Shown here one piece after another: positions 12,105 to 37,564 of a DNA stretch of 37,564 bases; within the stretch, counting starts at the first letter, position 1, and each line of letters opens with the position of its first letter. The notes below the pieces were generated by a model that was not told the DNA's origin, ran no database searches, and was given only the letters and a program-made list of their open reading frames with translations. This DNA is from a virus (lineage: Duplodnaviria; Heunggongvirae; Uroviricota; Caudoviricetes), in the IMG/VR virus record IMGVR_UViG_2695420705_000025. The stretch is one strand, 5' to 3'. The position numbers were made by a program, and so were the translations under genes.

Positions 12105-13760
12105 ATGAACACCAGAGAAAACAACCTTAAAGCCCTTCATGCGCCCCGCAAAATCAACCTGCGTGAGGAAGCCGAACTGCTCGGCGTGAATATCGTGACC
12201 GATATCGGTGAAGCACAGCCCCGCAATGAACCGGTTTTCCTGGGTTATCAGCGCCGCTGGTTTGAGGATGAAAGCCAGATTTGCATCGCTGAAAAATCCC
12301 GTCGTACCGGTCTGACATGGGCCGAAGCGGGCCGCAATGTCATGACGGCAGCAAAGCCGCGCCGCCGTGGCGGTCGCAACGTCTTTTATGTGGGTTCCCG
12401 TCAGGAAATGGCGCTGGAATATATCGCCGCCTGTGCCCTGTTTGCCCGCGCCTTTAACCAGCTGGCAAAGGCTGATGTCTGGGAGCAGACCTTCTGGGAC
12501 AGCGACAAAAAAGAAGAAATCCTCACTTATATGATCCGTTTCCCTAACAGCGGATTTAAGGTGCAGGCGCTGTCAAGCCGTCCGTCTAACCTGCGTGGTT
12601 TGCAGGGGGACGTGGTGATTGATGAGGCGGCATTTCATGAAGCCCTGGACGAACTCCTGAAAGCGGCTTTTGCTCTCACCATGTGGGGTGCCAACGTGCG
12701 GATCATATCGACACATAACGGCGTCGATAACCTGTTTAACCAGTACATTCAGGATGCGCGCGAGGGGCGCAAGGATTACAGCGTTCACCGCATCACGCTG
12801 GATGATGCCATCGCTGACGGGTTGTACCGACGTATCTGTTACGTCACGAATCAGCCGTGGTCGCCGGAAGCGGAAAAAGCCTGGCGTGATGGCCTGTACC
12901 GGAATGCGCCGAATAAAGAGAGTGCCGACGAGGAATACGGCTGCATTCCTAAAAAATCCGGGGGCGCTTATCTGTCACGCGTGCTGATTGAAGCCGCCAT
13001 GACGCCAGCGCGGGATATCCCGATTCTGCGTTTTGAAGCCCCGGACGATTTTGAATCGCTGACACCACAAATGCGCCACGGCATCGTTCAGGACTGGTGT
13101 GAACAGGAGCTGCTCCCGTTGCTCGATGCGCTGTCGCCGCTCAATAAACACGTACTGGGCGAAGACTTTGCACGCCGTGGCGACCTGTCGGTGTTTGTGC
13201 CGCTTGCCATCACTCCTGACTTACGCAAACGCGAATGTTTCCGCGTGGAGCTGCGTAATGTGACCTATGACCAGCAGCGACAAATCCTTTTATTCATTCT
13301 GTCCCGTTTGCCCCGTTTTACCGGCGCTGCATTTGATGCCACCGGTAACGGCGGTTATCTGGCAGAAGCCGCCCGTCTGATTTATGGCCCGGAGATGATC
13401 GACTGTGTGAATCTGACCGCATCCTGGTATCAGGAGTGGATGCCAAAACTGAAAGGCGAGTTTGAAGCGCAGAACATCACGATTGCCCGGCACCAGACCA
13501 CACTTGATGACCTGCTCCACATCAAGGTGGACAAAGGTATTCCGCAGATTGATAAGGGGCGCACAAAAGATGAAGGCGGTAAAGGCCGACGACATGGCGA
13601 CTTTGCCGTGGCGCTCTGTATGGCTGTCAGGGCGTCTTATATGAATGGTTTTGTTATCGACGAGGACAGCATACAGGCGCTGCCACCACGCCACCGTGGT
13701 GATGATGTTGATAACGATGATTTTGATGATTATCACCAGTTTGAACGAGGGGGCTGGTAA
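12105..13760 (+). CDS. Terminase large subunit
   Basis: About 551 aa from the ATG at 12105 (GAGAGGG SD); the track ORF from 11913 includes a spurious upstream extension. Lies immediately upstream of the portal gene, the usual large-subunit position; no search run. Confidence 0.85.
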   Translation: MNTRENNLKALHAPRKINLREEAELLGVNIVTDIGEAQPRNEPVFLGYQRRWFEDESQICIAEKSRRTGLTWAEAGRNVMTAAKPRRRGGRNVFYVGSRQEMALEYIAACALFARAFNQLAKADVWEQTFWDSDKKEEILTYMIRFPNSGFKVQALSSRPSNLRGLQGDVVIDEAAFHEALDELLKAAFALTMWGANVRIISTHNGVDNLFNQYIQDAREGRKDYSVHRITLDDAIADGLYRRICYVTNQPWSPEAEKAWRDGLYRNAPNKESADEEYGCIPKKSGGAYLSRVLIEAAMTPARDIPILRFEAPDDFESLTPQMRHGIVQDWCEQELLPLLDALSPLNKHVLGEDFARRGDLSVFVPLAITPDLRKRECFRVELRNVTYDQQRQILLFILSRLPRFTGAAFDATGNGGYLAEAARLIYGPEMIDCVNLTASWYQEWMPKLKGEFEAQNITIARHQTTLDDLLHIKVDKGIPQIDKGRTKDEGGKGRRHGDFAVALCMAVRASYMNGFVIDEDSIQALPPRHRGDDVDNDDFDDYHQFERGGW

Positions 13761-22757: not shown

Positions 22758-23192
22758 ATGGACGAAATGAATTTAGGTCCTGAAGCACAGGAACTGCATG
22801 ACAGCATTGTGGCAGAAATTCAGTCCGGCGTGCTGAAACTGAAAGACGGCCTGCCGTTCGGCACCGGTGACGAGACTGAAATGCAGTATGACGTGACGCT
22901 GCGTGAACTGACCGCAGGCGATCTGATTGATGCCCAGGCGGCTGCTGAAAAGCTGGTAATGAGCAAGGAAGGCCCGGTGCTGGTCAGTTCCCCGTCCCGG
23001 ATGGGACTGGAAATGCTGCGCCGACAGATTGCCAGCGTGGGTTGCATCAAAGGCCCGTTATCGCTGGCGCTGATGCGCAAGCTGTCTGTTGATGACTTCC
23101 AGCGTCTGTCGCTGGCTACAGAAATGTACGACATGGCTGTGGCGGCATCGCTGACACAAGAACGGGGGCGAGTGGCTGCGGTGCCGGAATGA
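22758..23192 (+). CDS. Tail assembly chaperone-like protein (gp41 position)
   Basis: 144 aa between the tube and tape measure genes, the usual chaperone position in myoviruses. Confidence 0.6.
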   Translation: MDEMNLGPEAQELHDSIVAEIQSGVLKLKDGLPFGTGDETEMQYDVTLRELTAGDLIDAQAAAEKLVMSKEGPVLVSSPSRMGLEMLRRQIASVGCIKGPLSLALMRKLSVDDFQRLSLATEMYDMAVAASLTQERGRVAAVPE

Positions 23193-23336
23193 TATTGAGA
23201 AAGCGGCGACAGCGATTGGCGTTATTCTGAAAAGTGGCCCGGAATGGGCCTTATCCCTCCCGCTGTCCCGCTTTTTCCGGCACTGCCAGCAGGCTAAAAC
23301 CCTCTCTCAATATCACCGTTAAATCAGGAAATCTCT

Positions 23337-25412
23337 ATGACCGGGAAACGCTTAAAGGCGTCTGTCATTATTGATCTTAATGGCAATCTTTCCCGGCGTT
23401 CCCGCCAGTATTCGAACCAGATAAACGCCCTGTCCCGTAGCGGACAAAGTTCCCTTCGTGCCCTGCGTATGGAGGTTGTGCGCGTTTCTGGTGCCATTGA
23501 CAGAATGGGTTCACTGTCAACCCGTACATTCCGAATGCTGTCAGCCGGGGCGCTGGGTATCGCTGGTGTGGGTTACACCGCCAATAAACTGTTTATTGGT
23601 GCAGCCGCCCAGCGTGAGCAGCAAATTATCGCCATGAACTCGCTGTATCACGGCGATAAGGTCAGAGCGCAGGCCATGATGGCCTGGGCAAAGCAGAACG
23701 CGAAGGACACCACGTGGGGGCTGAGTGGTGTTCTGGATGAGATCCGTTCGTCGAAAGGCTTCGGCATGACGGATGAACAGACGAAACAGTTCATCACCAT
23801 GTTGCAGGATCAGGGGGCCATGCACGGCTGGGATTTACCCACTGCACAGGGTGCCTCACTGCAACTGAAACAGATGTTTGCCCGCCAGCAAATCACGGCG
23901 GCGGATGCCAACCTGCTGACCGGTTACGGTATTAACGTTTACCAGACGCTGGCGGATGCACTGGGTAAAGAAGACGTTAAGGATATCCGCAAACAAGGTG
24001 AAAAAGGCAAGCTGGGTCTGAAATCCATTCTGACGGTATTCAGAACGCTGTCAGAACAGTCAAAAGGTGCACAGGCCAGTGCGATGAACTCCTGGGACGG
24101 GATGTTCGCCCAGATGGAAGCTAACCTGCTTGAATTTCGCATAAAGGTGGCAAACAGCGGCCCCTTTGAAGAAATCAAGAACGAGATGCGCCGGGTGCTT
24201 AACTGGCACGACATGGCGGATAAATCCGGGGAACTTGACGCACTGGCAGAAAACATTGGTCAGAAATTTCTGACCACGTTCAGAACGGTAAAAATCGCGG
24301 CGCAGGAATTATGGCGCTGGCTGAAACCGGGTAAAGATGCGCTGGCATGGGTTGACCAGAATATTGTCAGCCTGAAAAAACTGGCTGCTGTTCTGGTGTC
24401 TGTCTGGCTTGCCAATAAAGCCCTGAGAGCAGGCTGGGCCGTGGCAAAACCCTCATGGCAGGTTGCCAGTTATCCGTTTAAAACCGGGCGTCGTATGTGG
24501 CGCTGGATGCGAAACCGCAAACGTGGGCAGGCAGGTCTGCCGGTCCCGGATGCCATGACGTCTGAGACGCTGTTGCAGGGTATCGGCATTCAGCGTGTGT
24601 TTGTCATCAACTGGCCCCGTGGATTTGGTGGCTACGGGAGTGGCGGCGGTCGTCGCGGACGGAGCGGCGGAAGAATGGCCCCGCTGTTACCCCGCCAGCC
24701 GTTATTGCTGTCCGGGCCACAGCCGCTGGCATTACCTGCACCACGCCCTGTACTGGCATTACCCCCACCCGGCGTACCGGTAACAGCACGGCCTGCACCA
24801 TTACCTTTACCCGGTAAATCCGGTCTTCTGAGCAGGCTTGCAGGCAGTGCTGCCGGGCAACTGGTTACGGGAACGGTCGGAAAGCTGGCTGATGCCGGGC
24901 GTGCTGTTGGCGGGTGGTTTTCCGGTATCGGAAACAAACTTGCAGGCAGTGCGATCGGTCGGGTTGTGACAAAAGGTGCCGGGGCGCTGGGCTGGATGGG
25001 GAAAGGTGCCGGTCGTGTGTTGTCACGTCTGGGTGGCCCAGTAATGGGGGCACTCCAGCTTGCCCCCGTCCTGATGGATGAGCAGGCGTCAACCCATGAA
25101 AAAGCAGGCGCAATTGGCAGTACAGCCGGTGCATGGCTCGGCGGTGCCGTTGGCAGCCTTGCCGGACCGCTGGGTACGGTTGCCGGTGCCACGCTGGGCA
25201 GTGTCGCCGGGGAGTATCTGGGCGGTTTTGTAACCGACCTGTATCAGAAATGGACGGCCCCGGATAAGGAACCGCAGGAACAAAAAGTGAATGCGGAAGC
25301 CTCGCTGCGCGTCGAACTTGCCGAGGGGTTACGTCTGACCAGTTCCCGCGTCACCGAGGACGGTATGGGGCTGAATATTTACGCGGGCGATAACTACATT
25401 ACAGGCTGGTAA
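23337..25412 (+). CDS. Tail tape measure protein
   Basis: 691 aa, the largest tail ORF, with a Gly/Arg/Pro-rich low-complexity core and a Gly-rich C-terminal segment ([13 protein letters not shown]..., [20 protein letters not shown]). Confidence 0.8.
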
Positions 25413-25416
25413 AACC

Positions 25417-26904
25417 ATGTTTGAAGATGCTTTAAATGCCGTTAATGCTGTCCGGGATAAAATCAGCGGTGGTAAGAAAACAACCGGCAAAGGCACGTTT
25501 CGTAACGTGCCGTTTCTCGTCATCGAGGAGCAAAAACAGGCTGGCGGACGTCGCCTGGTTAAACGCGAGTACCCGTTACGTGATACCGGCGGCGTCAATG
25601 ACCTGGGGAAAAAGCTTCGCTCCCGTACATTCAGCGCCTGCATTCTGAACAGCAACGCAGAAACAGCCAGAGATGAAGCGGGTGCGCTGATGGATGCTCT
25701 TGATGCTCCGGGTAGCGGTGAGCTGGTACATCCTGATTTCGGCACTGTGGACGTCATGGTGGATTCATGGGAATGCCGCACTAAAGCGGATGAACTGAAT
25801 TATTACGCGTTCACCGTTACCGTTTATCCGTCGTTGCAGGATACTGCCCCGGACTCAGAGACAGACACCAGTGCAGCCGTACCGGCACAGGCCGTTGCTG
25901 TAACCGGTTCTCTGGGAGATACGCTGTCCTCTGTCTGGCAGACCGTAAAAGATGGCACTGCGGCGGCAACCGCCGTGATGGAAGCTGTAACCGGTGTCAT
26001 CGATGATATCAGTGATGCGGTGGACAATCTGGGGGTTACGCAGACTGTCAGCGGTCTGATGGGATCGCTTTCTGCGATGAAAGGCTCTGTGACCAGCCTG
26101 ATTAACCAGCCTGCCATGCTGGCCTCCTCGCTGATGGGGGCGCTGTCCGGCGTTTCATCGTTATGCGATACCCGGACAGCATTTTCCACATGGAACCGTC
26201 TGGCGCAGCGATTCGAACGTCGCCATGCCGCCACCGCAGGCAGACAGGGGACAATCACAACCTCGTACAACAGTCCGGTTGCAGAAAAAAATATTGCCAC
26301 ACTGAACTACGTCATGCTGGCAGCAGCACAGACATACCGGGCGGAGGCAGCAAGCCAGGCACTGACTGCGGCACTGGATTTCAGTCGCCGGATGGATAAT
26401 GCCGCCCGTGCACCTGTACTGGATGCCCCGTCCACCACAACCGGCACAGCCAGCGGGGCCAGCAGCACATCCGCTACCGTCACACAGGGACAGTTACAGT
26501 TAACTGCCATAACCCCGGACGGCGGCTTTTCACAGGTATCCTTTTCAGACAGTGGTACAGCCACGCCCCCGGTATTTGAAAGTGTGTCCGATATCGGAAA
26601 AACAGCCGCCATGCTGGGGGCAGCGCTGGATACCGTCATTCTGACGGCATCTGAGCAGGGCTTTTCGACAGACAGCGTTCAGCTTACGCAACTGCGTCTG
26701 CTGGTTGTTGCCGACCTGGAAAAACGCGGGCTGCAACTGGCAGGCAGTGAAACGCACCGCCTGCCGGAGACGATGCCTGCAATGGTGGCTCTGTACCGTT
26801 ACACAGGAAACAGCCGGAACTGGCAACGGCTGGCCCGCAGGAACGGTATCAGCAACCCGTTGTTTGTTCCCGGTGGTGTCAGTATTGAGGTGATTAATGA
26901 GTAA
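25417..26904 (+). CDS. N: N protein, DNA circularization protein
   Basis: 495 aa in the Mu N position downstream of the tape measure. Confidence 0.75.
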
Positions 26905-28036
26905 TACCGTCACGCTGCGAACGGATGGCAGGCTTTTTACCGGCTGGACGTCAGTCTCTGTCACCCGCTCCATTGAATCCGTAGCCGGATATTTTGAGCT
27001 GGGGGTGAATGTGCCACCGGGTACAGATTTATCCGGGCTGGCACCGGGGAAGGCGTTCACGCTGGAAATCGACGGGCAGATTGTCTGCACCGGTTATATC
27101 GATTCGCGGCGACGCCAGATGACCGCTGACAGCATGAAAATCACTATCGCCGGACGTGACAAAACGGCTGACCTGATTGACTGTGCTGCCGTTTACAGTG
27201 GCGGACAGTGGAAAAACCGCACACTGGAGCAGATTGCGCGTGACCTGTGCGCTCCTTATGGCGTTACCGTTCGCTGGGAGCTTTCCGATAAGGAAAGTTC
27301 GGCAGCTTTTCCCGGCTTCACGCTGGACCATTCAGAAACCGTTTATGAGGCGCTGGTGCGTGCCTCCCGCGCACGCGGTGTACTGATGACCAGCAATGCC
27401 GCAGGAGAGCTGGTATTCAGCCGGGCTGCCAGCACAGCCACTGATGAGCTGGTTCTCGGAGAAAATCTGCTGACACTGGATTTTGAGGAAGACTTCCGCG
27501 ACCGGTTCAGCGAATACACCGTCAAGGGGTATGCCCGCGCAAACGGTGCTGAGGGTGATGATATTGATGCGAAAAGTATCGTCTCCCGGAAAGGGACCGC
27601 CACTGACAGTGATGTAACCCGTTACAGACCGATGATCATCATTGCTGACAGCAAAATTACGGCGAAGGATGCACAGGCCCGCGCCCTGCGTGAGCAACGC
27701 CGCAGACTGGCAAAATCCATCACCTTTGAGGCTGAAATTGACGGATGGACTCGCAAGGACGGGCAACTCTGGATGCCGAACCTGCTGGTCACTATTGATG
27801 CCTCGAAATATGCCATCAAAACCACGGAATTACTGGTCAGCAAAGTCACCCTGATACTGAATGACCAGGACGGGCTGAAAACCCGCGTCAGCCTTGCACC
27901 ACGCGAAGGCTTTCTGGTGCCGGTTGAAAGCGACCGTAAAAACAGGAAAGGCGGCGACAGTAACGGCGGTATTGATGCGCTGGTTGAAGATTATTATCGC
28001 AGACACCCGGAGAAAACGCCGCCGTGGAAAGAGTAA
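26897..28036 (+). CDS. P: Baseplate hub / tail protein P
   Basis: 379 aa; position and size match Mu P. Confidence 0.75.
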
Positions 28037-28617
28037 ATGATTTCGCCCTGAACCGCCTGCTGACGCCGCTGATGCGTCGTGTGCGCCTGATGCTTGCGCG
28101 CGCTGTTGTTAACGTGATTAACGACGGGCGAAAGGTTCAGAACCTGCAGGTCGGCCTGCTGGATGATGAGGAATCTGATGAAGTGGAGCGCCTGCAAAAT
28201 TACGGGCATTTCAGCGTTCCCCTGCCGGGAGCAGAGGCGCTGATTGCCTGTGTAGGCGCACAACGTGATCAGGGGATTGCCGTTGTGGTGGAAGACCGCC
28301 GCTACCGCCCGACAAATCTTGAACCGGGTGATGCAGGCATTTACCACCACGAGGGGCATCGTATCAGGCTGACAAAGGACGGACGCTGCATCATTACCTG
28401 TAAAACGGTTGAGGTTTACGCTGATGAAAGTATGACCGTTGACACACCCAGAACCACGTTTACCGGCGACGTTGAGATCCAGAAAGGTCTGGGCGTTAAA
28501 GGTAAAAGCCAGTTCGACAGCAATATTACTGCCCCGGATGCCATCATCAATGGCAAATCGACGGATAAGCATATCCACCGTGGCGACAGCGGCGGAACCA
28601 CGGGGCCAATGCAATGA
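28024..28617 (+). CDS. Baseplate central spike protein (gp45-like)
   Basis: 197 aa from a GTG start at 28024 overlapping the P 3' end; position and size match Mu gp45. Confidence 0.7.
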   Translation: MERVNDFALNRLLTPLMRRVRLMLARAVVNVINDGRKVQNLQVGLLDDEESDEVERLQNYGHFSVPLPGAEALIACVGAQRDQGIAVVVEDRRYRPTNLEPGDAGIYHHEGHRIRLTKDGRCIITCKTVEVYADESMTVDTPRTTFTGDVEIQKGLGVKGKSQFDSNITAPDAIINGKSTDKHIHRGDSGGTTGPMQ

Positions 28618-29051
28618 CCGATTTAGCCATTATCTGGACGAACGGACGCGGCGATATTGCACAGGATGGCATTGATATGCTGACCGACGACAGCCTGACA
28701 ACCGATGTGACAATCTCCCTGTTTACAGACCGGCGCGCGCTGGATTCTGACACGCTGCCGGATGGTTCAGATGATCGCCGTGGATGGTGGGGTGACAGTT
28801 ACCGCGACCGCCCCATCGGTTCGCGGTTGTGGCTGTTATCACGTGAAAAAGCCACACCGGATACGCTGGAACGCGCCAGAGGGTATGCCGAAGAGGCGCT
28901 GGAATGGCTGAAAACAGCGGGCCGGGTAAGTGCGATTAACGTCAGAGCGGAACAGTTACATCAGGGCTGGTTATACCTCTACATTGCACTGACATTACCG
29001 GATGGTTCCGTTATTCCTTATGAGTTTAAAGCAGCATTTAACGGGGTTTAA
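28614..29051 (+). CDS. Baseplate wedge protein (gp46-like)
   Basis: 145 aa, ATGA overlap with upstream gene; position in the baseplate module. Confidence 0.7.
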   Translation: MTDLAIIWTNGRGDIAQDGIDMLTDDSLTTDVTISLFTDRRALDSDTLPDGSDDRRGWWGDSYRDRPIGSRLWLLSREKATPDTLERARGYAEEALEWLKTAGRVSAINVRAEQLHQGWLYLYIALTLPDGSVIPYEFKAAFNGV

Positions 29052-30134
29052 ATGGCTTATTCACCACCGACATTATCATCGCTGATTGCCCGTACAGAAC
29101 AGAATATTGAACAGCGCCTGCCGGGTAGCTGGCCTCAGGCCCGTGAAAAAACGCTGAGTGCCATTGCTTATGCTCAGGCGGGCCTTGCTGCCGGTTGTCA
29201 CGAGCATATTTCATGGGTTGGACGGCAGATTATCCCGTCGACAGCAGATGAAGATGAGTTGCTGGAGCACTGCCGGTTCTGGGGCGTGCGCCGCAAACAG
29301 GCGACAGCCGCCAGCGGCCCGCTGACTGTCACCACATCGGCAGCGACCACCATTCCTGCCGGTACACGCTGGCAGCGTGCTGATGGTGTGGTTTACAGCC
29401 TGGCTGATGCCATTGTGATTGACCGTGCAGGAACGACGGAAATTACCGTTACCGCACTGGCTGCCGGTGAAGCAGGAAATACCGGTGAGAATACCCTTTT
29501 AACGTTGATCACCCCGGTTGCCTGTGTTGTTTCCGATGCCATCACTGTAAAAGGGTTTTCCGGTGGGGCTGATATTGAGAGTGCAGCGGAGCTGCTGTCA
29601 CGGCTGGAATATCGTGTCCAGTATCCTCCGTTCGGCGGTAATCAGTTTGATTATGTTCGCTGGGCGCGTGAAGTCAGCGGCGTTACCCGTGCCTGGTGTT
29701 TTCCGACATGGAAAGGCGGTGGCACAGTCGGGGTGACGTTTGTTATGGATAACCGGAGCAATATTTTTCCACAACCGGCAGACGTGGAACGCGTGGCGGA
29801 TTATATCGCCGGTCATACTGACCCGATCACCGGTCTGATTGTCGGACAGCCTGACGGTGTAAATGTCACTGTATTTGCGCCAAAGGCAAAGCCGGTAAAT
29901 CCACGGATTTATATATCACCGAAGACAGCCGAACTGAAACAGGCTATTACCCACGCCATTAATACCATGTTTTTTAATGAGGTGACGCCGGGCGGCGCAC
30001 TTGCCCCCTCCCGTATTATCCGTGCGGTGGCAGGTGTTACCGGTCTGGATGATTTTGAAGTGCGTTTCCCGACAGAGATCCAGCGTTCGGAGAATACGGA
30101 ACTGTTAACACCGGGGACAATTGAATGGCTGTAA
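29052..30134 (+). CDS. Baseplate J-like protein (gp47-like)
   Basis: 360 aa; position and size match the baseplate J family member of Mu. Confidence 0.75.
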   Translation: MAYSPPTLSSLIARTEQNIEQRLPGSWPQAREKTLSAIAYAQAGLAAGCHEHISWVGRQIIPSTADEDELLEHCRFWGVRRKQATAASGPLTVTTSAATTIPAGTRWQRADGVVYSLADAIVIDRAGTTEITVTALAAGEAGNTGENTLLTLITPVACVVSDAITVKGFSGGADIESAAELLSRLEYRVQYPPFGGNQFDYVRWAREVSGVTRAWCFPTWKGGGTVGVTFVMDNRSNIFPQPADVERVADYIAGHTDPITGLIVGQPDGVNVTVFAPKAKPVNPRIYISPKTAELKQAITHAINTMFFNEVTPGGALAPSRIIRAVAGVTGLDDFEVRFPTEIQRSENTELLTPGTIEWL

Positions 30135-30667
30135 CACCCTATCAGACGGCCTTTCTGCAATTACTGCCGTCAGGGCTTGCCTGGAATAAAAGCCCCGACA
30201 GCAAATTATCTGCGCTGGCGCAGGCCATCAGCGACGTGATTGCCACTGCGGCGGATGATGCGCGGCAAATGCTGCGGGAGCGTTTCCCGTCCACATCCCG
30301 CTGGTATCTGGGGGGGTGGGAATCATTTCTGGGGTTGCCGGACTGTACCAGCGAAAACGGCACCCTGTCCGAACGCCAGCGGGCTGCCGCGAATAAAATG
30401 CGTATGACCGGCAATCTGAGTCGGCGCTTTTATGAATGGCTGGCTGCGCAGTACGGTTTTACCGTCAGGCTGACGGATTCCACAGAAGGCCAGTGGGTTA
30501 CGCAGGTCAATATTTACGGTATTAAAAATTATCGCAACGCAACGGTGCTGGATAATGTTCTGACGCCGTTACGTGTTTATGAATCGGGTGCGCTGGAATG
30601 TTTACTGGAGAAATATAAACCCGCGCATCAGATTTATAAATTTGTTTACCATGACGGAGATAACTAA
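30125..30667 (+). CDS. Tail protein gp48-like (baseplate / fibre attachment)
   Basis: 180 aa immediately upstream of the tail fibre gene. Confidence 0.7.
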   Translation: MAVTPYQTAFLQLLPSGLAWNKSPDSKLSALAQAISDVIATAADDARQMLRERFPSTSRWYLGGWESFLGLPDCTSENGTLSERQRAAANKMRMTGNLSRRFYEWLAAQYGFTVRLTDSTEGQWVTQVNIYGIKNYRNATVLDNVLTPLRVYESGALECLLEKYKPAHQIYKFVYHDGDN

Positions 30668-32022
30668 TGTTTTATATTGATAACGACAGCGGCGTAACCG
30701 TCATGCCGCCCGTATCCGCCCAGCGTAGTGCTATCGTTCGCTGGTTTTCAGAAGGTGACGGGAATAATGTTATCACATGGCCCGGCATGGACTGGTTTAA
30801 TATTGTGCAGGCGGAGTTATTAAACACGCTGGAAGAAGCCGGTATTCAACCGGATAAAACAAAATTAAACCAGCTTGCACTATCCATTAAAGCCATTATG
30901 AGCAATAACGCACTGCTGATAAAAAATAACCTCAGCGAAATTAAAACTGCCGGGGCATCAGCACAGCGTACAGCACGTGAAAATCTGGATATTTATGATG
31001 CCAGCCTGAACAAAAAAGGACTCGTTCAGCTAACCAGTGCCACTGACAGCCCCAGTGAAACGCTGGCAGCCACCGCAAAAGCGGTGAAAATTGCGATGGA
31101 TAATGCCAGTGCCCGTCTGGCAAAAGACCGGAACGGAGCAGATATTCCCAATAAGCCGCTGTTTATCCAAAACCTCGGTTTACAGGAAACGGTAAACAAG
31201 GCTGGTAACGCTGTTCAGCGTTCTGGCGATACAATGACCGGAAAACTGAATCTACCACAGACATCTGCATTCGGCGTTGATACCGATAATGCACTGGGTG
31301 GTAATTCCATTACTCTCGGAGATAACGACACTGGTATTAAACAGGGCGGAGACGGTGTCCTTTTATTCTATTCAAATGGACAACTGGCATTTGGGCTTCA
31401 ACCCGCATCTGCTGATTTTTATAAGCGGGTTGCATACATTCCTCAGGGAATAATTCCTGATGGAAGTGGCGCATTTGCAGACCAGTTGAATAATGCCACC
31501 GCGCCTTTTGTTCAGACGCAGTTTGCCTGGAATCCCACTCCTGGTGGTCATTACGTGCCGATAGTTAAGGGCTTGTCCATTCGCAATGGACAGGGCTATC
31601 CCGGCGCGGTCAGCTTTGGTTATTTGCTGACAGAACAGTATGGATTTCCGGTTCCATGTATTCATATGCGTGGCGATGGCGGTAATGATGCTTTATGGCA
31701 GTTTAACCCGAACGATAAATCTTTTATTTCACCGGGTGCTCTTGTTGCGGGTGGCATCATTTATAACACCGATGGAAATATATTTGGCGGGTGTTGGGGT
31801 TCAAATTTAGCTGATTATCTCAATAGCACATATGTAAGAGACATTCGACTTGGTAGCGCAGAATCAATATCAGCATGGCGAGGCCCTGGTTACTGGGATA
31901 CTTCTGGATATGTTCTGACCGCAGCCGGAAACAGCAACACCGATGAATTTATTGATACATTAACCAGAAGGCCTATTCAGAAGTTGATTGGTGGGACATA
32001 TTATAACGTTGTGAGTATTTGA
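30667..32022 (+). CDS. S: Tail fibre protein S (constant Sc part fused to the variable part currently in expressing orientation)
   Basis: 451 aa. The constant N-terminal part runs to the left gix repeat (about 31167); the variable part lies inside the invertible segment. Confidence 0.88.
31167..31203. repeat. gixL, left inverted repeat / Gin recombination site of the G segment
   Basis: CCAAAACCTCGGTTTACAGGAAACGGTAAAC is the near-perfect reverse complement of 34340-34375 (two or three mismatches); lies inside S at the constant/variable junction (encodes LGLQETVN). Confidence 0.85.
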
Positions 32023-32023
32023 C

Positions 32024-32551
32024 ATGATGCATTTAAAAAACATTAAAGCAGGGAACCCCAAAACACCTGAACAATACCAGTTAACCAAAAAAGCTGGAGT
32101 GGTCTGGCTTTATACTGAAGATGGTAAAAACTGGTACGAAGAACAAAAAAACTTTCAACCAGATACTATAAAAATTGCATACGATAAAAATAATGTGATT
32201 GTTACCGTAAGCAAAGATGTTTCAACTATTAACCCGGAAGGTTTAAGTGTTGTTGAAGTATCCGATATTACGGCAAATCGTCGCGCAGACAATAACGGAA
32301 ACTGGATGTTTCTGGATGGTAAAGTAGTAAAGCGGGAATATACAAAACAGGAGCTGCAACAGCAGGCAGAGTTACAAAAAGCCGCTTTGCTTTCCGAAGC
32401 GGAGTCTGTGATTCAACCGCTGGAACGTGCTGTCAGGCTGAATATGGCAACTAATGAGGAACGCGCACGACTGGAGTCATGGGAACGCTACAGTGTTCTG
32501 GTCAGCCGTGTGGATACGGCAAATCCTGAATGGCCACAAAAGCCTGAATAA
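32024..32551 (+). CDS. U: Tail fibre assembly protein U
   Basis: 175 aa directly after S; paralogous to the minus-strand 177-aa ORF (both start [11 protein letters not shown]...). Confidence 0.88.
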
Positions 32552-32556
32552 AAATT

Positions 32557-32576
32557 AAGGCCCGATAGCGGGCCTT
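32557..32576. terminator. Bidirectional hairpin between convergent U and U'
   Basis: AAGGCCCG-ATAG-CGGGCCTT stem-loop in the 28-bp gap between the convergent stop codons. Confidence 0.55.
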
Positions 32577-32579
32577 GTC

Positions 32580-33113
32580 TCATTCTGGTTGTTCCGGGAA
32601 TGTTACAGGAAGAACAGAGGTATCTGTGGCATCAACCTGCTGCATGTATAACATCCAGTTAATGAGTCTTTGCCTGTCTGAATCGCTGATAATTCCCAGC
32701 GCAAGCTGTGTTTGCCAGCACTGCGTTTCCTCTCTGGCCTGTCGCAGCAAAATCTGTTTCTGAATTTCAGCCAGTTGACGTAGTTCTTCATCAGTCCGGG
32801 GGCGTTTCATGACCTTGCCATCCTGAAACACCCAGTCACCGAGAATATCGGCCCGGCGATTCGCTGTCGTGTCGGGTAATTCGACAACGCTCATTCCTTC
32901 CGGGTTAATAGACGACACATCTTTTTCAATATAGCGAATGATACCTCTGTCATCGTAAGCGATTTTTAGTGTGTCTGCCTGAAAGGCTTTTTGTGCCTCA
33001 TACCAGTTCTTACCATCTTCAGCGTAAAGCCAGATAACTCCGTGTTTCTTTGTTAACTCATACTGTTCCAGTGTTTTAGCGTTACCCGCTTTTATGTTCT
33101 TTAAGTGCATCAT
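32580..33113 (-). CDS. U': Tail fibre assembly protein U' (alternative, currently non-expressed orientation)
   Basis: 177 aa on the minus strand, paralogous to U; follows S' on the minus strand. Confidence 0.85.
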   Translation of the reverse strand: MMHLKNIKAGNAKTLEQYELTKKHGVIWLYAEDGKNWYEAQKAFQADTLKIAYDDRGIIRYIEKDVSSINPEGMSVVELPDTTANRRADILGDWVFQDGKVMKRPRTDEELRQLAEIQKQILLRQAREETQCWQTQLALGIISDSDRQRLINWMLYMQQVDATDTSVLPVTFPEQPE

Positions 33114-33114
33114 A

Positions 33115-34362
33115 TTAAACGCTCGCTACATTATACCAGGTGCCATTTATATACTTTTGAACGGGTCTGTAATAAACGCCCGCTATATTATCGGCAGAGT
33201 TGGACCCTGTATCCTGAACATTAATACCAGACAATACATGACCTGACGGGCACTGGAAATTCCATGTTTGCCAGTTGTTCACACCATGATATTGCTGTGA
33301 ACCAAGACGAACATCTTTCACATAGCGGGAATCAAAATTCCCCCAGTTGCTGGGTTGTATCTGACCGTTAACAGCAAATATCACCGAGTTATCTGTATTT
33401 CGCTGACTATAGAAATGCCAGCCTGAATCATCACCAAGCTCTGCAACAGTTGGTCTTGACGAATTTCCCCACAAGCTAAATGATGCATTACGGGCAGCGG
33501 TATTTGCACTTGAAAGTGTGAAGAACTTACTTTCCCCAGCCTGAATACCCTTTAATGATCTTGCTGAACCATTTATAAAGCGGAATACATGCACACCATT
33601 AGCATAAGCATCCAGCACCCCATCACCATTTTGTTTAAACCCGGTATCGTTATCTCCTAAAACTATTGAATTTCCACCCAGGGCATTAGCCGTTCCAATC
33701 CCCAGATTTCCGCTAAAAATGGCATTAATACCGAGTATTGAGTGAGAACAATAAAACCCTCGCCCATTGTTAAAATCCAGAATGGCTTGTGCGTTCGTGC
33801 TTTCTGTCGCGGGATTAGTTGCTCCCCACTTATATGTTGTTTGACCGACAGTATAATCCTGAGTTGGAACAATAACCGTTAGCCCTTCTTCAGCAGAAAC
33901 CCGCACAGGAAAAGCCCTGCCTTCAACGTAAAAAACGCTGCATACATCATCTTCTTTAAGGCTTGTTACAATGGAATGGATTGCGCGCTCATTAGTCTGA
34001 TACGTCGAAAAATAACCTGCCGCATATGAACCACGATCAGTCCAGCCACCAGGCATTACCATTCCATTGAATTCGCAGTTATTCATTGCGTAATCACTAC
34101 TGGCACATGTGGTCGTTATAATCACTCTGGAAGCCAGCTCGCCAGTGCCGCCTGTGGAACGCCGGAAAATAACTGGATACCACTTTCCACCAATTGCATT
34201 AGACGGCGCATTAAATGCGTACTGCCGCATTCCTTTTTTCTTATCCACCTCGCCTTTGCTGTAAACATTAATGTTACTCAGGAAGCGATCCTTATCAGGA
34301 ATATCCGCGCCGTTCTGGTTTTTCTGTAATGCGCCAGAAGCCTGATTTACCGTTTCCTGCAA
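33115..34362 (-). CDS. S': Sv', alternative variable tail fibre domain; startless ORF that opens at gixR
   Basis: Minus-strand ORF whose first codons (LQETVN) are encoded by the gix repeat; the in-frame codon upstream is TAA and the apparent start is TTG. So it has no start of its own and is expressed only after inversion fuses it to Sc. Shares the motif [22 protein letters not shown] with S. Confidence 0.85.
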   Translation of the reverse strand: MQETVNQASGALQKNQNGADIPDKDRFLSNINVYSKGEVDKKKGMRQYAFNAPSNAIGGKWYPVIFRRSTGGTGELASRVIITTTCASSDYAMNNCEFNGMVMPGGWTDRGSYAAGYFSTYQTNERAIHSIVTSLKEDDVCSVFYVEGRAFPVRVSAEEGLTVIVPTQDYTVGQTTYKWGATNPATESTNAQAILDFNNGRGFYCSHSILGINAIFSGNLGIGTANALGGNSIVLGDNDTGFKQNGDGVLDAYANGVHVFRFINGSARSLKGIQAGESKFFTLSSANTAARNASFSLWGNSSRPTVAELGDDSGWHFYSQRNTDNSVIFAVNGQIQPSNWGNFDSRYVKDVRLGSQQYHGVNNWQTWNFQCPSGHVLSGINVQDTGSNSADNIAGVYYRPVQKYINGTWYNVASV

Positions 34363-34375
34363 ACCGAGGTTTTAG
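34340..34375. repeat. gixR, right inverted repeat / Gin recombination site of the G segment
   Basis: Reverse complement matches gixL; located 59 bp upstream of the gin start. Confidence 0.85.
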
Positions 34376-34433
34376 ATAATGGCTGTTTCCGGCCTGCATG
34401 GCATGATTTGCGCTTTTAAACGGGAGATCCAGA

Positions 34434-35027
34434 GTGCTGATTGGCTATGTAAGGGTATCAACAAATGACCAGAATACAGACCTGCAACGAAACGCTCTTG
34501 TTTGTGCAGGATGTGAACAAATATTTGAAGATAAATTAAGCGGAACAAGGACAGACAGACCTGGATTAAAACGCGCTTTAAAGCGCCTTCAAAAAGGTGA
34601 CACACTTGTTGTCTGGAAACTGGATCGCCTCGGGCGAAGCATGAAACATTTGATTTCTCTCGTAGGGGAATTACGAGAGCGAGGGATTAATTTTCGCAGT
34701 CTTACTGACAGTATTGATACGTCATCTCCAATGGGGCGTTTTTTCTTCCACGTTATGGGTGCCCTGGCTGAGATGGAACGAGAACTAATCATCGAGCGAA
34801 CGATGGCTGGACTTGCTGCCGCCAGAAATAAAGGCCGTATTGGTGGGCGACCACCTAAACTAACCAAAGCGGAATGGGAGCAGGCCGGGCGTTTATTAGC
34901 ACAAGGAATCCCCCGCAAGCAGGTTGCATTGATCTACGATGTGGCCCTGTCAACTCTGTATAAAAAACACCCCGCGAAACGAACGCATATAGAAAACGAC
35001 GATCGAATCAATCAAATCGATCGGTAA
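34434..35027 (+). CDS. gin: Gin serine recombinase (DNA invertase), copy 1
   Basis: 197 aa from a GTG start, MLIGYVRVSTNDQNTDLQRNALVCAGCEQIF... with catalytic serine in VRVST; recognised as Mu Gin. Confidence 0.92.
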   Translation: MLIGYVRVSTNDQNTDLQRNALVCAGCEQIFEDKLSGTRTDRPGLKRALKRLQKGDTLVVWKLDRLGRSMKHLISLVGELRERGINFRSLTDSIDTSSPMGRFFFHVMGALAEMERELIIERTMAGLAAARNKGRIGGRPPKLTKAEWEQAGRLLAQGIPRKQVALIYDVALSTLYKKHPAKRTHIENDDRINQIDR

Positions 35028-35035
35028 TACAGATC
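35001..35035. promoter_or_regulatory. Cluster of three GATC (Dam) sites, mom upstream regulatory region, copy 1
   Basis: GATC at 35001, 35019 and 35032, overlapping the gin 3' end and upstream of com. Mu mom is known to be controlled by Dam methylation and OxyR binding at three upstream GATC sites. Confidence 0.6.
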
Positions 35036-35109
35036 GATTATGTCTCAATAACCACACTCAACCCATGATGTTTTTTAAGATAGTGGCGAATTGATGCAAA
35101 GGAGGTGAG

Positions 35110-35280
35110 ATGAAATCAATTCGCTGTAAAAACTGCAACAAACTGTTATTTAAGGCGGATTCCTTTGATCACATTGAAATCAGGTGTCCGCGTTGCAAAC
35201 GTCACATCATAATGCTGAATGCCTGCGAGCATCCCATGGAGAAACATTGTGGGAAAAGAGAAAAAATCACGATCTCCTAA
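35110..35280 (+). CDS. com: Com-like translational activator, C-terminally altered copy created by the duplication junction (56 aa)
   Basis: Identical to com through codon 54 (zinc-finger cysteines intact), then reads IS-stop across the junction at 35271/35272 instead of HSDETVRY-stop. No mom gene follows this copy. Confidence 0.6.
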   Translation: MKSIRCKNCNKLLFKADSFDHIEIRCPRCKRHIIMLNACEHPMEKHCGKREKITIS

Positions 35281-35982
35281 AACTATTGAATTTCCACCCA
35301 GGGCATTAGCCGTTCCAATCCCCAGATTTCCGCTAAAAATGGCATTAATACCGAGTATTGAGTGAGAACAATAAAACCCTCGCCCATTGTTAAAATCCAG
35401 AATGGCTTGTGCGTTCGTGCTTTCTGTCGCGGGATTAGTTGCTCCCCACTTATATGTTGTTTGACCGACAGTATAATCCTGAGTTGGAACAATAACCGTT
35501 AGCCCTTCTTCAGCAGAAACCCGCACAGGAAAAGCCCTGCCTTCAACGTAAAAAACGCTGCATACATCATCTTCTTTAAGGCTTGTTACAATGGAATGGA
35601 TTGCGCGCTCATTAGTCTGATACGTCGAAAAATAACCTGCCGCATATGAACCACGATCAGTCCAGCCACCAGGCATTACCATTCCATTGAATTCGCAGTT
35701 ATTCATTGCGTAATCACTACTGGCACATGTGGTCGTTATAATCACTCTGGAAGCCAGCTCGCCAGTGCCGCCTGTGGAACGCCGGAAAATAACTGGATAC
35801 CACTTTCCACCAATTGCATTAGACGGCGCATTAAATGCGTACTGCCGCATTCCTTTTTTCTTATCCACCTCGCCTTTGCTGTAAACATTAATGTTACTCA
35901 GGAAGCGATCCTTATCAGGAATATCCGCGCCGTTCTGGTTTTTCTGTAATGCGCCAGAAGCCTGATTTACCGTTTCCTGCAA
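35272..35982 (-). pseudogene. Truncated second copy of the Sv' 5' region (N-terminal 237 codons)
   Basis: Exact copy of 33652-34362; the reading frame continues into junction-derived sequence (track ORF 35146-35982). Confidence 0.8.
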
Positions 35983-35995
35983 ACCGAGGTTTTAG
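35960..35995. repeat. Third gix site (duplicate of gixR), in direct orientation to gixR and inverted relative to gixL
   Basis: Identical to 34340-34375 at an offset of 1620 bp. Confidence 0.85.
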
Positions 35996-36053
35996 ATAAT
36001 GGCTGTTTCCGGCCTGCATGGCATGATTTGCGCTTTTAAACGGGAGATCCAGA

Positions 36054-36647
36054 GTGCTGATTGGCTATGTAAGGGTATCAACAAATGACCAGAATACAGA
36101 CCTGCAACGAAACGCTCTTGTTTGTGCAGGATGTGAACAAATATTTGAAGATAAATTAAGCGGAACAAGGACAGACAGACCTGGATTAAAACGCGCTTTA
36201 AAGCGCCTTCAAAAAGGTGACACACTTGTTGTCTGGAAACTGGATCGCCTCGGGCGAAGCATGAAACATTTGATTTCTCTCGTAGGGGAATTACGAGAGC
36301 GAGGGATTAATTTTCGCAGTCTTACTGACAGTATTGATACGTCATCTCCAATGGGGCGTTTTTTCTTCCACGTTATGGGTGCCCTGGCTGAGATGGAACG
36401 AGAACTAATCATCGAGCGAACGATGGCTGGACTTGCTGCCGCCAGAAATAAAGGCCGTATTGGTGGGCGACCACCTAAACTAACCAAAGCGGAATGGGAG
36501 CAGGCCGGGCGTTTATTAGCACAAGGAATCCCCCGCAAGCAGGTTGCATTGATCTACGATGTGGCCCTGTCAACTCTGTATAAAAAACACCCCGCGAAAC
36601 GAACGCATATAGAAAACGACGATCGAATCAATCAAATCGATCGGTAA
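36054..36647 (+). CDS. gin: Gin serine recombinase (DNA invertase), copy 2
   Basis: Identical to the 34434-35027 copy. Confidence 0.92.
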   Translation: MLIGYVRVSTNDQNTDLQRNALVCAGCEQIFEDKLSGTRTDRPGLKRALKRLQKGDTLVVWKLDRLGRSMKHLISLVGELRERGINFRSLTDSIDTSSPMGRFFFHVMGALAEMERELIIERTMAGLAAARNKGRIGGRPPKLTKAEWEQAGRLLAQGIPRKQVALIYDVALSTLYKKHPAKRTHIENDDRINQIDR

Positions 36648-36655
36648 TACAGATC
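36621..36655. promoter_or_regulatory. Cluster of three GATC (Dam) sites, mom upstream regulatory region, copy 2 (the one actually upstream of com-mom)
   Basis: Same sequence as 35001-35035 at an offset of 1620 bp. Confidence 0.6.
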
Positions 36656-36729
36656 GATTATGTCTCAATAACCACACTCAACCCATGATGTTTTTTAAGA
36701 TAGTGGCGAATTGATGCAAAGGAGGTGAG

Positions 36730-36918
36730 ATGAAATCAATTCGCTGTAAAAACTGCAACAAACTGTTATTTAAGGCGGATTCCTTTGATCACATTGAAAT
36801 CAGGTGTCCGCGTTGCAAACGTCACATCATAATGCTGAATGCCTGCGAGCATCCCATGGAGAAACATTGTGGGAAAAGAGAAAAAATCACGCATTCTGAC
36901 GAAACCGTGCGTTATTGA
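36730..36918 (+). CDS. com: Com, zinc-finger translational activator of mom
   Basis: 62 aa, [62 protein letters not shown], with CxxC...CxxC zinc finger; overlaps the mom start. Confidence 0.9.
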
Positions 36919-37564
36919 GTATGAAGGCCAGATTGTTGGCTATGGTTCAAAGGAGCTGCGCGTTGAAACCATATCTTGCTGGCTGGCCCGCACAATTATT
37001 CAGACAAAGCACTATTCCCGCCGTTTTGTGAATAACTCTTACCTCCACCTGGGAGTATTCAGCGGACGCGATCTGGTTGGCGTTCTCCAGTGGGGATATG
37101 CCCTTAACCCCAACTCAGGTCGTCGTGTCGTGCTTGAAACGGATAACCGGGGCTATATGGAGTTGAACCGCATGTGGCTACACGACGACATGCCCCGCAA
37201 CTCTGAATCACGGGCCATCAGTTATGCACTGAAAACCATAAGGTTACTGTATCCGTCAGTGGAGTGGGTTCAGTCTTTTGCAGACGAACGCTGCGGACGT
37301 GCTGGCGTTGTGTATCAGGCGTCAAATTTTGATTTTATTGGCAGCCATGAAAGCACGTTCTACGAGCTGGATGGTGAGTGGTATCACGAGATAACGATGA
37401 ACGCGATTAAACGCGGTGGACAACGAGGCGTGTATTTACGGGCTAATAAAGAGCGTGCCGTGGTGCACAAATTTAATCAGTATCGCTACATCAGGTTCCT
37501 GAACAAGCGAGCAAGGAAGCGACTAAATACCAAGCTATTCAAGGTTCAGCCATACCCTAAGTGA
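36839..37564 (+). CDS. mom: Mom DNA modification enzyme (adenine carbamoylmethylation, anti-restriction)
   Basis: 241-aa ORF starting inside com and ending at the last base of the window; recognised as Mu Mom. The exact start codon may be downstream of 36839. Confidence 0.88.

Follow-up and report, generated by a model that had tools for sequence, protein, structure and literature searches.

Expression of bacteriophage Mu's mom gene is controlled jointly by host and phage factors. Transcription from the mom promoter, Pmom, involves host Dam and OxyR, the phage activator C, and Fis, and translation of mom requires Com (PMC3378877). Specifically, Bolker & Kahmann (1989) and Hattman & Sun (1997), as cited in PMC3378877 and PMC2909390, describe the unmethylated GATC region of Mu mom as OxyR-bound and repressed, with Dam methylation relieving the repression. 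Com is a 62-aa CCCC zinc-finger protein that binds a hairpin beside a translation-inhibition structure, exposing the mom start (PMC6483171). The product of the final gene, Mom, takes glycine from Gly-tRNA(Gly) and attaches it at N6 of adenine in double-stranded DNA; the product rearranges to 6-NcmdA, and the modified DNA is protected from restriction (PMC13219725).

Here, we examine a locus of this type in a viral sequence record, IMGVR_UViG_2695420705_000025. We use "the window" for the whole 37,564-nucleotide stretch of DNA that was analyzed. By homology, positions 36621-37564 are a genuine Mu-type com–mom operon, single and ordinary. This identity follows from the alignment to Mu, from the Pfam assignments of Com, Mom, and Gin, from a Mom protein that matches that of Mu at 230 of 231 residues, from the invariance of the GATC sites, and from the Mu literature. 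An earlier note on this DNA had read the interval as a com–mom module with Dam/OxyR-type control, a reading that is correct and already known. The note had also taken the control cluster to be duplicated. We argue below that the duplication very probably arose during assembly of the draft genome from which the window derives.

The window as a whole is, on its gene content, the ner-to-mom body of a Mu-like (SfMu-like) E. coli prophage and an ordinary member of the Mu family. It opens with the ner ATG at position 1 and closes with the mom stop codon at position 37564; neither c, the gene for the repressor, nor either end of Mu is included in it. In the source contig (L012, 6684-6798), the Mu right end, ...CGTGCGCCGCTTCA, is reached 115 nt past the mom stop, and the prophage sits beside host pqiABC. 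The hallmarks of a Muvirus are present: ner, transposase A/B, the late genes, an invertible G segment with gin, and com–mom at the right end. The coordinates of the features discussed here are collected in Table 1.

Table 1. Features of the gin–com–mom end of the window and of the repeat that surrounds it (positions are those of the window)
Feature	Coordinates	Strand	Basis or remark
gixL, partner of gixR	31163-31188	.	inverted repeat
Left contig end in source scaffold; GATC at 35001/35019/35032	33652..35271	.	perfect repeat; same segment as 35272-36891
gixR recombination site	34354..34379, again 35974-35999 in repeat	.	inverted repeats; G-segment boundary in Mu annotation
Right contig start, same 1.6-kb segment written again	35272..36891	.	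repeat comparison
Scaffold gap	35272..35272	.	N in CYCC01000018.1, A in window
gin, G-segment DNA invertase, 197 aa	36054..36647	+	PF00239 + PF02796 (Resolvase + HTH_7)
Upstream control region of Pmom (predicted)	36609..36660	.	GATC (Dam) at 36621-36624, 36639-36642, 36652-36655
Pmom late promoter (C-activator site, T6 spacer run, -10; predicted)	36655..36721	+	alignment to AF083977 promoter feature 35693-35759
com, 62 aa, predicted zinc-ribbon translational activator of mom	36730..36918	+	ORF + PF10122
Com target and translation-inhibition hairpin region, mom mRNA (predicted)	36839..36875	+	one base off Mu
mom, 231 aa from GTG (241 aa from ATG 36839), predicted adenine-modifying GNAT	36869..37564	+	PF25680

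Two GATC triplets occur, the first at 35001, 35019, and 35032 and the second at 36621, 36639, and 36652. Each is 35 bp wide, and the next-tightest triplets that share none of these sites span at least 136 bp. A com-like ORF begins 75 nt 3' of each triplet, at 35110 and 36730, and thus the observation that three GATC sites lie within 35 bp upstream of each com copy is accurate, down to the positions of both triplets and both com starts. When the three-GATC region is aligned with that of Mu, a single substitution appears, T to C, and it falls outside the GATC sites. In Mu, in SfMu, and in nine further loci from prophages, all three sites are conserved without exception and at the same offsets to the com ATG, although the bases adjacent to them vary. 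Clustering statistics alone are weak and not significant for the GATC triplet: when the window is de-duplicated and its 71 GATC sites are placed at random, a cluster of three sites in 35 bp arises somewhere in 10.7% of trials (P ~0.11). The significance of the cluster therefore derives from its conservation across relatives and from the Mu literature, rather than from clustering statistics.

GATC is rarer in the whole window than dinucleotide composition predicts. There are 81 sites as compared with 134 +/- 10 expected from dinucleotide-preserving shuffles, and 100 of 100 shuffles contained at least 81.

The near-identity of the upstream control region to that of Mu suggests that OxyR and Dam act here as they do there. 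The match to Dam/OxyR control of mom proposed in the earlier note is thus backed by sequence identity to Mu, by Pfam, and by the published accounts (PMC3378877, PMC2909390), with control itself predicted. Immediately downstream, Pmom from CAATAACC to GGAGGTG is the published tin7 oligonucleotide, apart from the tin7 mutation (PMC4461284). From CAATAACC through the T6 run and the -10 element to the com ribosome-binding site (RBS), there is no difference from Mu, and the C site, T6 run, and suboptimal spacing of a weak, C-dependent promoter are predicted here too. Two C-to-T changes relative to Mu lie just upstream of the C-binding core and convert ATGCCCC to ATGTCTC (36663-36667). The same pair of changes occurs in loci L002, L003, and L006 and is absent from Mu, SfMu, and L009.

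The com product belongs to PF10122, Zn_ribbon_Com (E=2.3e-9, 37 bits, cut-off 22.9). It carries cysteines at positions C6, C9, C26, and C29, the arrangement of a CCCC zinc ribbon, and it is encoded directly upstream of mom. One residue, T43M (ACG to ATG, 36856-36858), separates it from Mu Com. The underlying base change falls in the N3 spacer of the Com-recognized mRNA motif CC-N3-GAG and leaves the motif preserved. In terms of the published target, CC-N2-3-GAG, the motif is retained as CC-AUG-GAG (PMC6483171). The mom RBS, GGAG (36858-36861), and the GTG start both lie within the hairpin region. The GTG is located 139 nt 3' of the com ATG, exactly as in AF083977, and inside the 3' end of com. 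A predicted hairpin, CCCAUGG...UGUGGG, spans the RBS and the GUG; its fold is no better than those of shuffled sequences (z=-0.85), and the hairpin is consistent with Mu and is not used as evidence here.

Mom is assigned to PF25680 with E=2e-75 and 253 bits. A 2026 structure–function study of Mom highlights nine residues (PMC13219725), and all nine are kept: W48, H58, Y59, R111, S124, D149, R151, Y159, and W181 in the 241-aa numbering. Among these, R111 and S124 are essential, and their presence fits a GNAT-fold Mom. The description of Mom as a phage counter-defense enzyme is in line with the anti-restriction DNA modification reported for Mom (PMC13219725), and homology predicts the same activity for the protein encoded here.

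If the locus works as its Mu counterpart does, a sequence of events can be proposed. Host Dam would methylate the three GATC sites upstream of Pmom. Were the sites unmethylated, host OxyR would span them, and transcription would be blocked. Once they are methylated, the late activator C could bring RNA polymerase to this weak promoter. Com, the zinc-ribbon protein encoded by the transcript, would then bind the hairpin just upstream of the mom start, opening the structure in which the mom RBS and GTG are hidden. Finally, Mom would add glycine, delivered by Gly-tRNA(Gly), to adenine N6 in double-stranded DNA, and the modified DNA would resist many restriction enzymes. OxyR binding, Dam dependence, Com action, and momylation are established for Mu, and we infer them for the present locus from its resemblance to Mu.

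The gene preceding the operon, gin, differs from its Mu counterpart at the stop codon. Specifically, the Mu TAA is CAA here (36636-36647, also 35016-35027), which adds four codons and yields a Gin of 197 rather than 193 aa. The 3' end of gin overlaps the first and second GATC sites. The assembly index has 2,538 blocks in which this exact 197-aa protein appears, and the 197-aa Gin is therefore a common natural variant. Between the 3' end of gin and the start of mom, four substitutions distinguish the window from Mu (AF083977), and none falls in a GATC site. The CAA in place of the gin stop, the C-to-T pair, and T43M are all differences from Mu that are common to many natural prophages.

The second GATC triplet and the second com start belong to a much larger structure, a perfect direct repeat of 1,620 bp (0 mismatches) that is the sole long repeat in the window. 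The repeat unit encompasses the 5' 711 nt of the variable tail-fiber gene S'v (minus strand) and gixR, then gin in full together with the control region of mom, and lastly the first 54 codons of com and the GTG of mom with seven codons. Both GATC clusters lie inside this repeat, and thus they are not independent. The upstream copy keeps an intact promoter, a com zinc ribbon (PF10122, E=1.8e-9), and the mom start. No bases are shared across either repeat boundary, leaving no microhomology at the join. The earlier note placed a second copy of the control region 1.6 kb upstream, and in the sequence string this is so, by virtue of the perfect repeat. For the organism it is not supported, since the source record has an N at position 35272.

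The source record can be traced through S'v. The exact 415-aa S'v product is found in only three draft assemblies, all of one series. One of these, GCA_001285765.1, has a contig, CYCC01000018.1, with the gene order of the window, including two copies of the 197-aa Gin and the 56-aa Com fragment. Across window positions 23115-37564, the contig and the window differ by 1 mismatch in 14,450 nt, and that mismatch is at 35272. Moreover, the 1,619 nt that precede the N in the contig are identical to the 1,619 nt that follow it. The junction is therefore a gap character set between identical contig ends, as in a scaffold join, and not the run of called junction bases that a genuine duplication would display. 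The window itself contains no N. The N of the source at 35272 has been rendered as A, and other gaps are possibly masked in the same manner within positions 1-23114.

The other two assemblies of the series, GCA_001285845.1 and GCA_001283405.1, contain joins of the same kind at different places. In CYBY01000018.1 (L013, N at 13195), a single N is flanked by an overlap of 8,119 nt with 0 mismatches over the comparable 8,053 nt. The N lies in the gixL core, and the overlap takes in host pqiA'BC and the prophage right end, which look like an 8.1-kb tandem duplication. In CYCB01000036.1 (L014, 10552), a single N links a point inside the tape-measure gene with the gixR core, and gin is in inverted orientation. 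The joins at gix cores are probably places where contigs broke at the actively inverting G segment and were then mis-scaffolded. Single-N joins at three different places around the one invertible segment, one in each of these related assemblies, point to the assembly process.

The junction itself was sought elsewhere. A 31-nt junction sequence had no hit in IMG/VR, among the GTDB species representatives, or in the JGI metagenomes, nor did a 300-bp query across the junction in 50,697 phage records or in 5,426 complete E. coli genomes. No phage record among the 50,697 spans the repeat. Exact look-ups with the 56-aa Com fragment and with the 278-aa S'v/antisense-com ORF found neither on record; these chimeric products lack an exact match because the source ORFs span the N. 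The genes gin, com, and mom occur once each in 11 of 11 relatives, namely eight contigs with the identical Gin, Mu, SfMu, and the closest complete genome.

Published descriptions of assembly software show how such a join may arise. GapFiller lengthens the sequence at the two gap edges and declines a closure if the length of the fill disagrees with the estimated gap (PMC3446322). A widely used pipeline of Velvet, SSPACE, and GapFiller runs 120 iterations, and its authors warn that these greedy tools can make false joins (PMC5320598). From the single-N pattern, we infer that a pipeline of the SSPACE/GapFiller type made the record. Compared with typical unmerged overlaps, the overlaps here, at 1.6 and 8.1 kb, are longer; the single N between identical ends is alike. 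The overlap in the sister assembly, at 8 kb, is longer than a simple extension of gap edges would suggest, which leaves the exact route to the artifact uncertain. We conclude that, very probably, two contigs overlapping by 1,619 bp were joined by a single N and left unmerged, so that the duplication is an assembly artifact and the phage has one ordinary mom operon. The true sequence is most likely window positions 1-35271 followed directly by 36892-37564.

The principal alternative is that a tandem duplication occurred very recently in the lysogen and that the N is merely one uncalled base. The perfection of the repeat and its register speak for this possibility, as does the intact promoter, com zinc ribbon, and mom start of the upstream copy, and a 1.6-kb insert would be within the tolerance of Mu headful packaging. 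Several observations weigh against it. The junction base is an N flanked by exact contig-end overlaps, and reads crossing a real junction, if they existed, would normally yield called sequence rather than a gap. The two sister assemblies, with their different single-N joins, implicate the pipeline and not three independent rearrangements. The join lacks microhomology and is absent from all collections searched, and a perfect 1.6-kb tandem repeat would be unstable in a recA+ host, where RecA recombination would quickly remove it. Taken together, we regard a real duplication as improbable.

Were the duplication real nonetheless, the prophage would have gin twice, gixR twice in direct repetition together with gixL, and a second complete Dam/OxyR/C-controlled Pmom. 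From the upstream Pmom, a Com shortened to 56 aa would be expressed, as would a fusion peptide of 38 aa beginning at the mom start, and transcription from it would run antisense through the truncated S'v into the second gin, com, and mom. With three gix sites, a third inversion state would fuse Sc to the truncated S'v. A Mu-like phage with an additional promoter responsive to OxyR and C, and with a third gix site, would be no more than a modest curiosity. The suggestion in the earlier note that the upstream copy might serve as an additional sink for OxyR, or as an additional promoter, is not supported. The repeated unit is 1,620 bp and not a control cassette, the junction is a one-N gap between identical contig ends, other single-N joins exist in sister assemblies, and the junction is absent from every collection searched.

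The S'v segment raises a second alternative, that another S'v–gin–com copy resides elsewhere in the genome, in a second Mu-like element or remnant, and was mis-scaffolded in tandem. In E. coli, gin, com, and the S'v cassette of the window are all widespread: 1,186 of 5,426 genomes match the S'v segment, at up to 9 places per genome, and several complete genomes have two or three places that match the com/S'v junction query. Against such a displaced copy, there is only one N, and on their far sides both contigs run into unique prophage sequence. The ends that they have in common show 100% identity across 1,619 nt, which fits one locus written twice better than two diverged loci. Finally, the overlap in CYBY01000018.1 includes host pqiABC, which is impossible for a second phage copy. 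We consider this explanation very improbable.

The variable part of S'v, 33472-34340, is unmatched in the closest complete-genome Mu-like prophage (L010). The segment has 95-97% identity to invertible tail-fiber cassettes in 45 other E. coli genomes. The pattern at 33472-34340 points to mosaic exchange of host-range cassettes. When a mosaic boundary at the S'v breakpoint was sought among the 5,426 E. coli genomes as a cause of the contig end, only full-length matches were found.

A third alternative invokes Gin itself, which could have made the junction at secondary (quasi-gix) sites, for instance through an unequal exchange of sister chromosomes. In favor of this, both sister assemblies have their single-N joins within gix cores (gixL and gixR), gin adjoins a truncated baseplate J gene in a metagenome scaffold (L004), and a gix-like left half-site can be recognized by eye at 33630-33641 (9/12 matches). 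However, the break at 33651/33652 lies 8 bp off the center of this weak gix-like sequence, and the com-side break bears no resemblance to gix. Serine invertases exchange strands at a 2-bp core shared by both sites, whereas the two sides of the present join share no bases. The gix-core joins of the sister assemblies are, moreover, N gaps too, which would be expected if contigs merely stop at an inverted repeat that is flipping in culture. With the break off the half-site center and no bases in common between the sides, we reject Gin recombination at quasi-gix sites, the faintest of the possibilities considered. Both Gin action and a misplaced second copy are less likely than a real duplication.

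The scaffold L004 deserves a remark of its own. In this ENA metagenome scaffold (HOLS23-1, L004 5394-9966), gin adjoins the truncated baseplate J gene, and the tail-fiber genes are inverted. Either a large inversion extended past the normal G segment, perhaps using a secondary gix site, or the scaffold is another misassembly.

The locus carries little biological weight, being almost identical to a phage regulatory region that ranks among the best studied. Its lesson is one of caution: perfect direct repeats in draft assemblies call for a check of the source record for gap characters before they are taken as biology. In the present case, the conversion of the N at 35272 into an A hid the sole visible sign of the join.

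How, then, does this locus compare with described systems? Shigella phage SfMu (NC_027382) is collinear with the window across nearly its whole length at 95-99% identity and has one gin–com–mom right end. Relative to SfMu and to the Mu-like prophages of E. coli and Shigella, the window differs in its S'v/U' tail-fiber cassette and in the 1,620-bp repeat, which is very probably artifactual. Relative to the Mu mom operon (AF083977 35693-36602), order and spacing are alike, from the gin end through the three GATC sites, the C site, and the T6/-10 elements to com and the overlapping mom. Beyond the Mu family, the agn43 and P22 gtr switches likewise place a GATC cluster in an OxyR-binding region where methylation excludes OxyR (PMC2909390). 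Whether mom expression phase-varies is described as unsettled in PMC2909390, unlike the agn43/gtr setting. Also unlike agn43 and gtr, mom additionally requires C, an activator from the phage, and Com, which activates translation.
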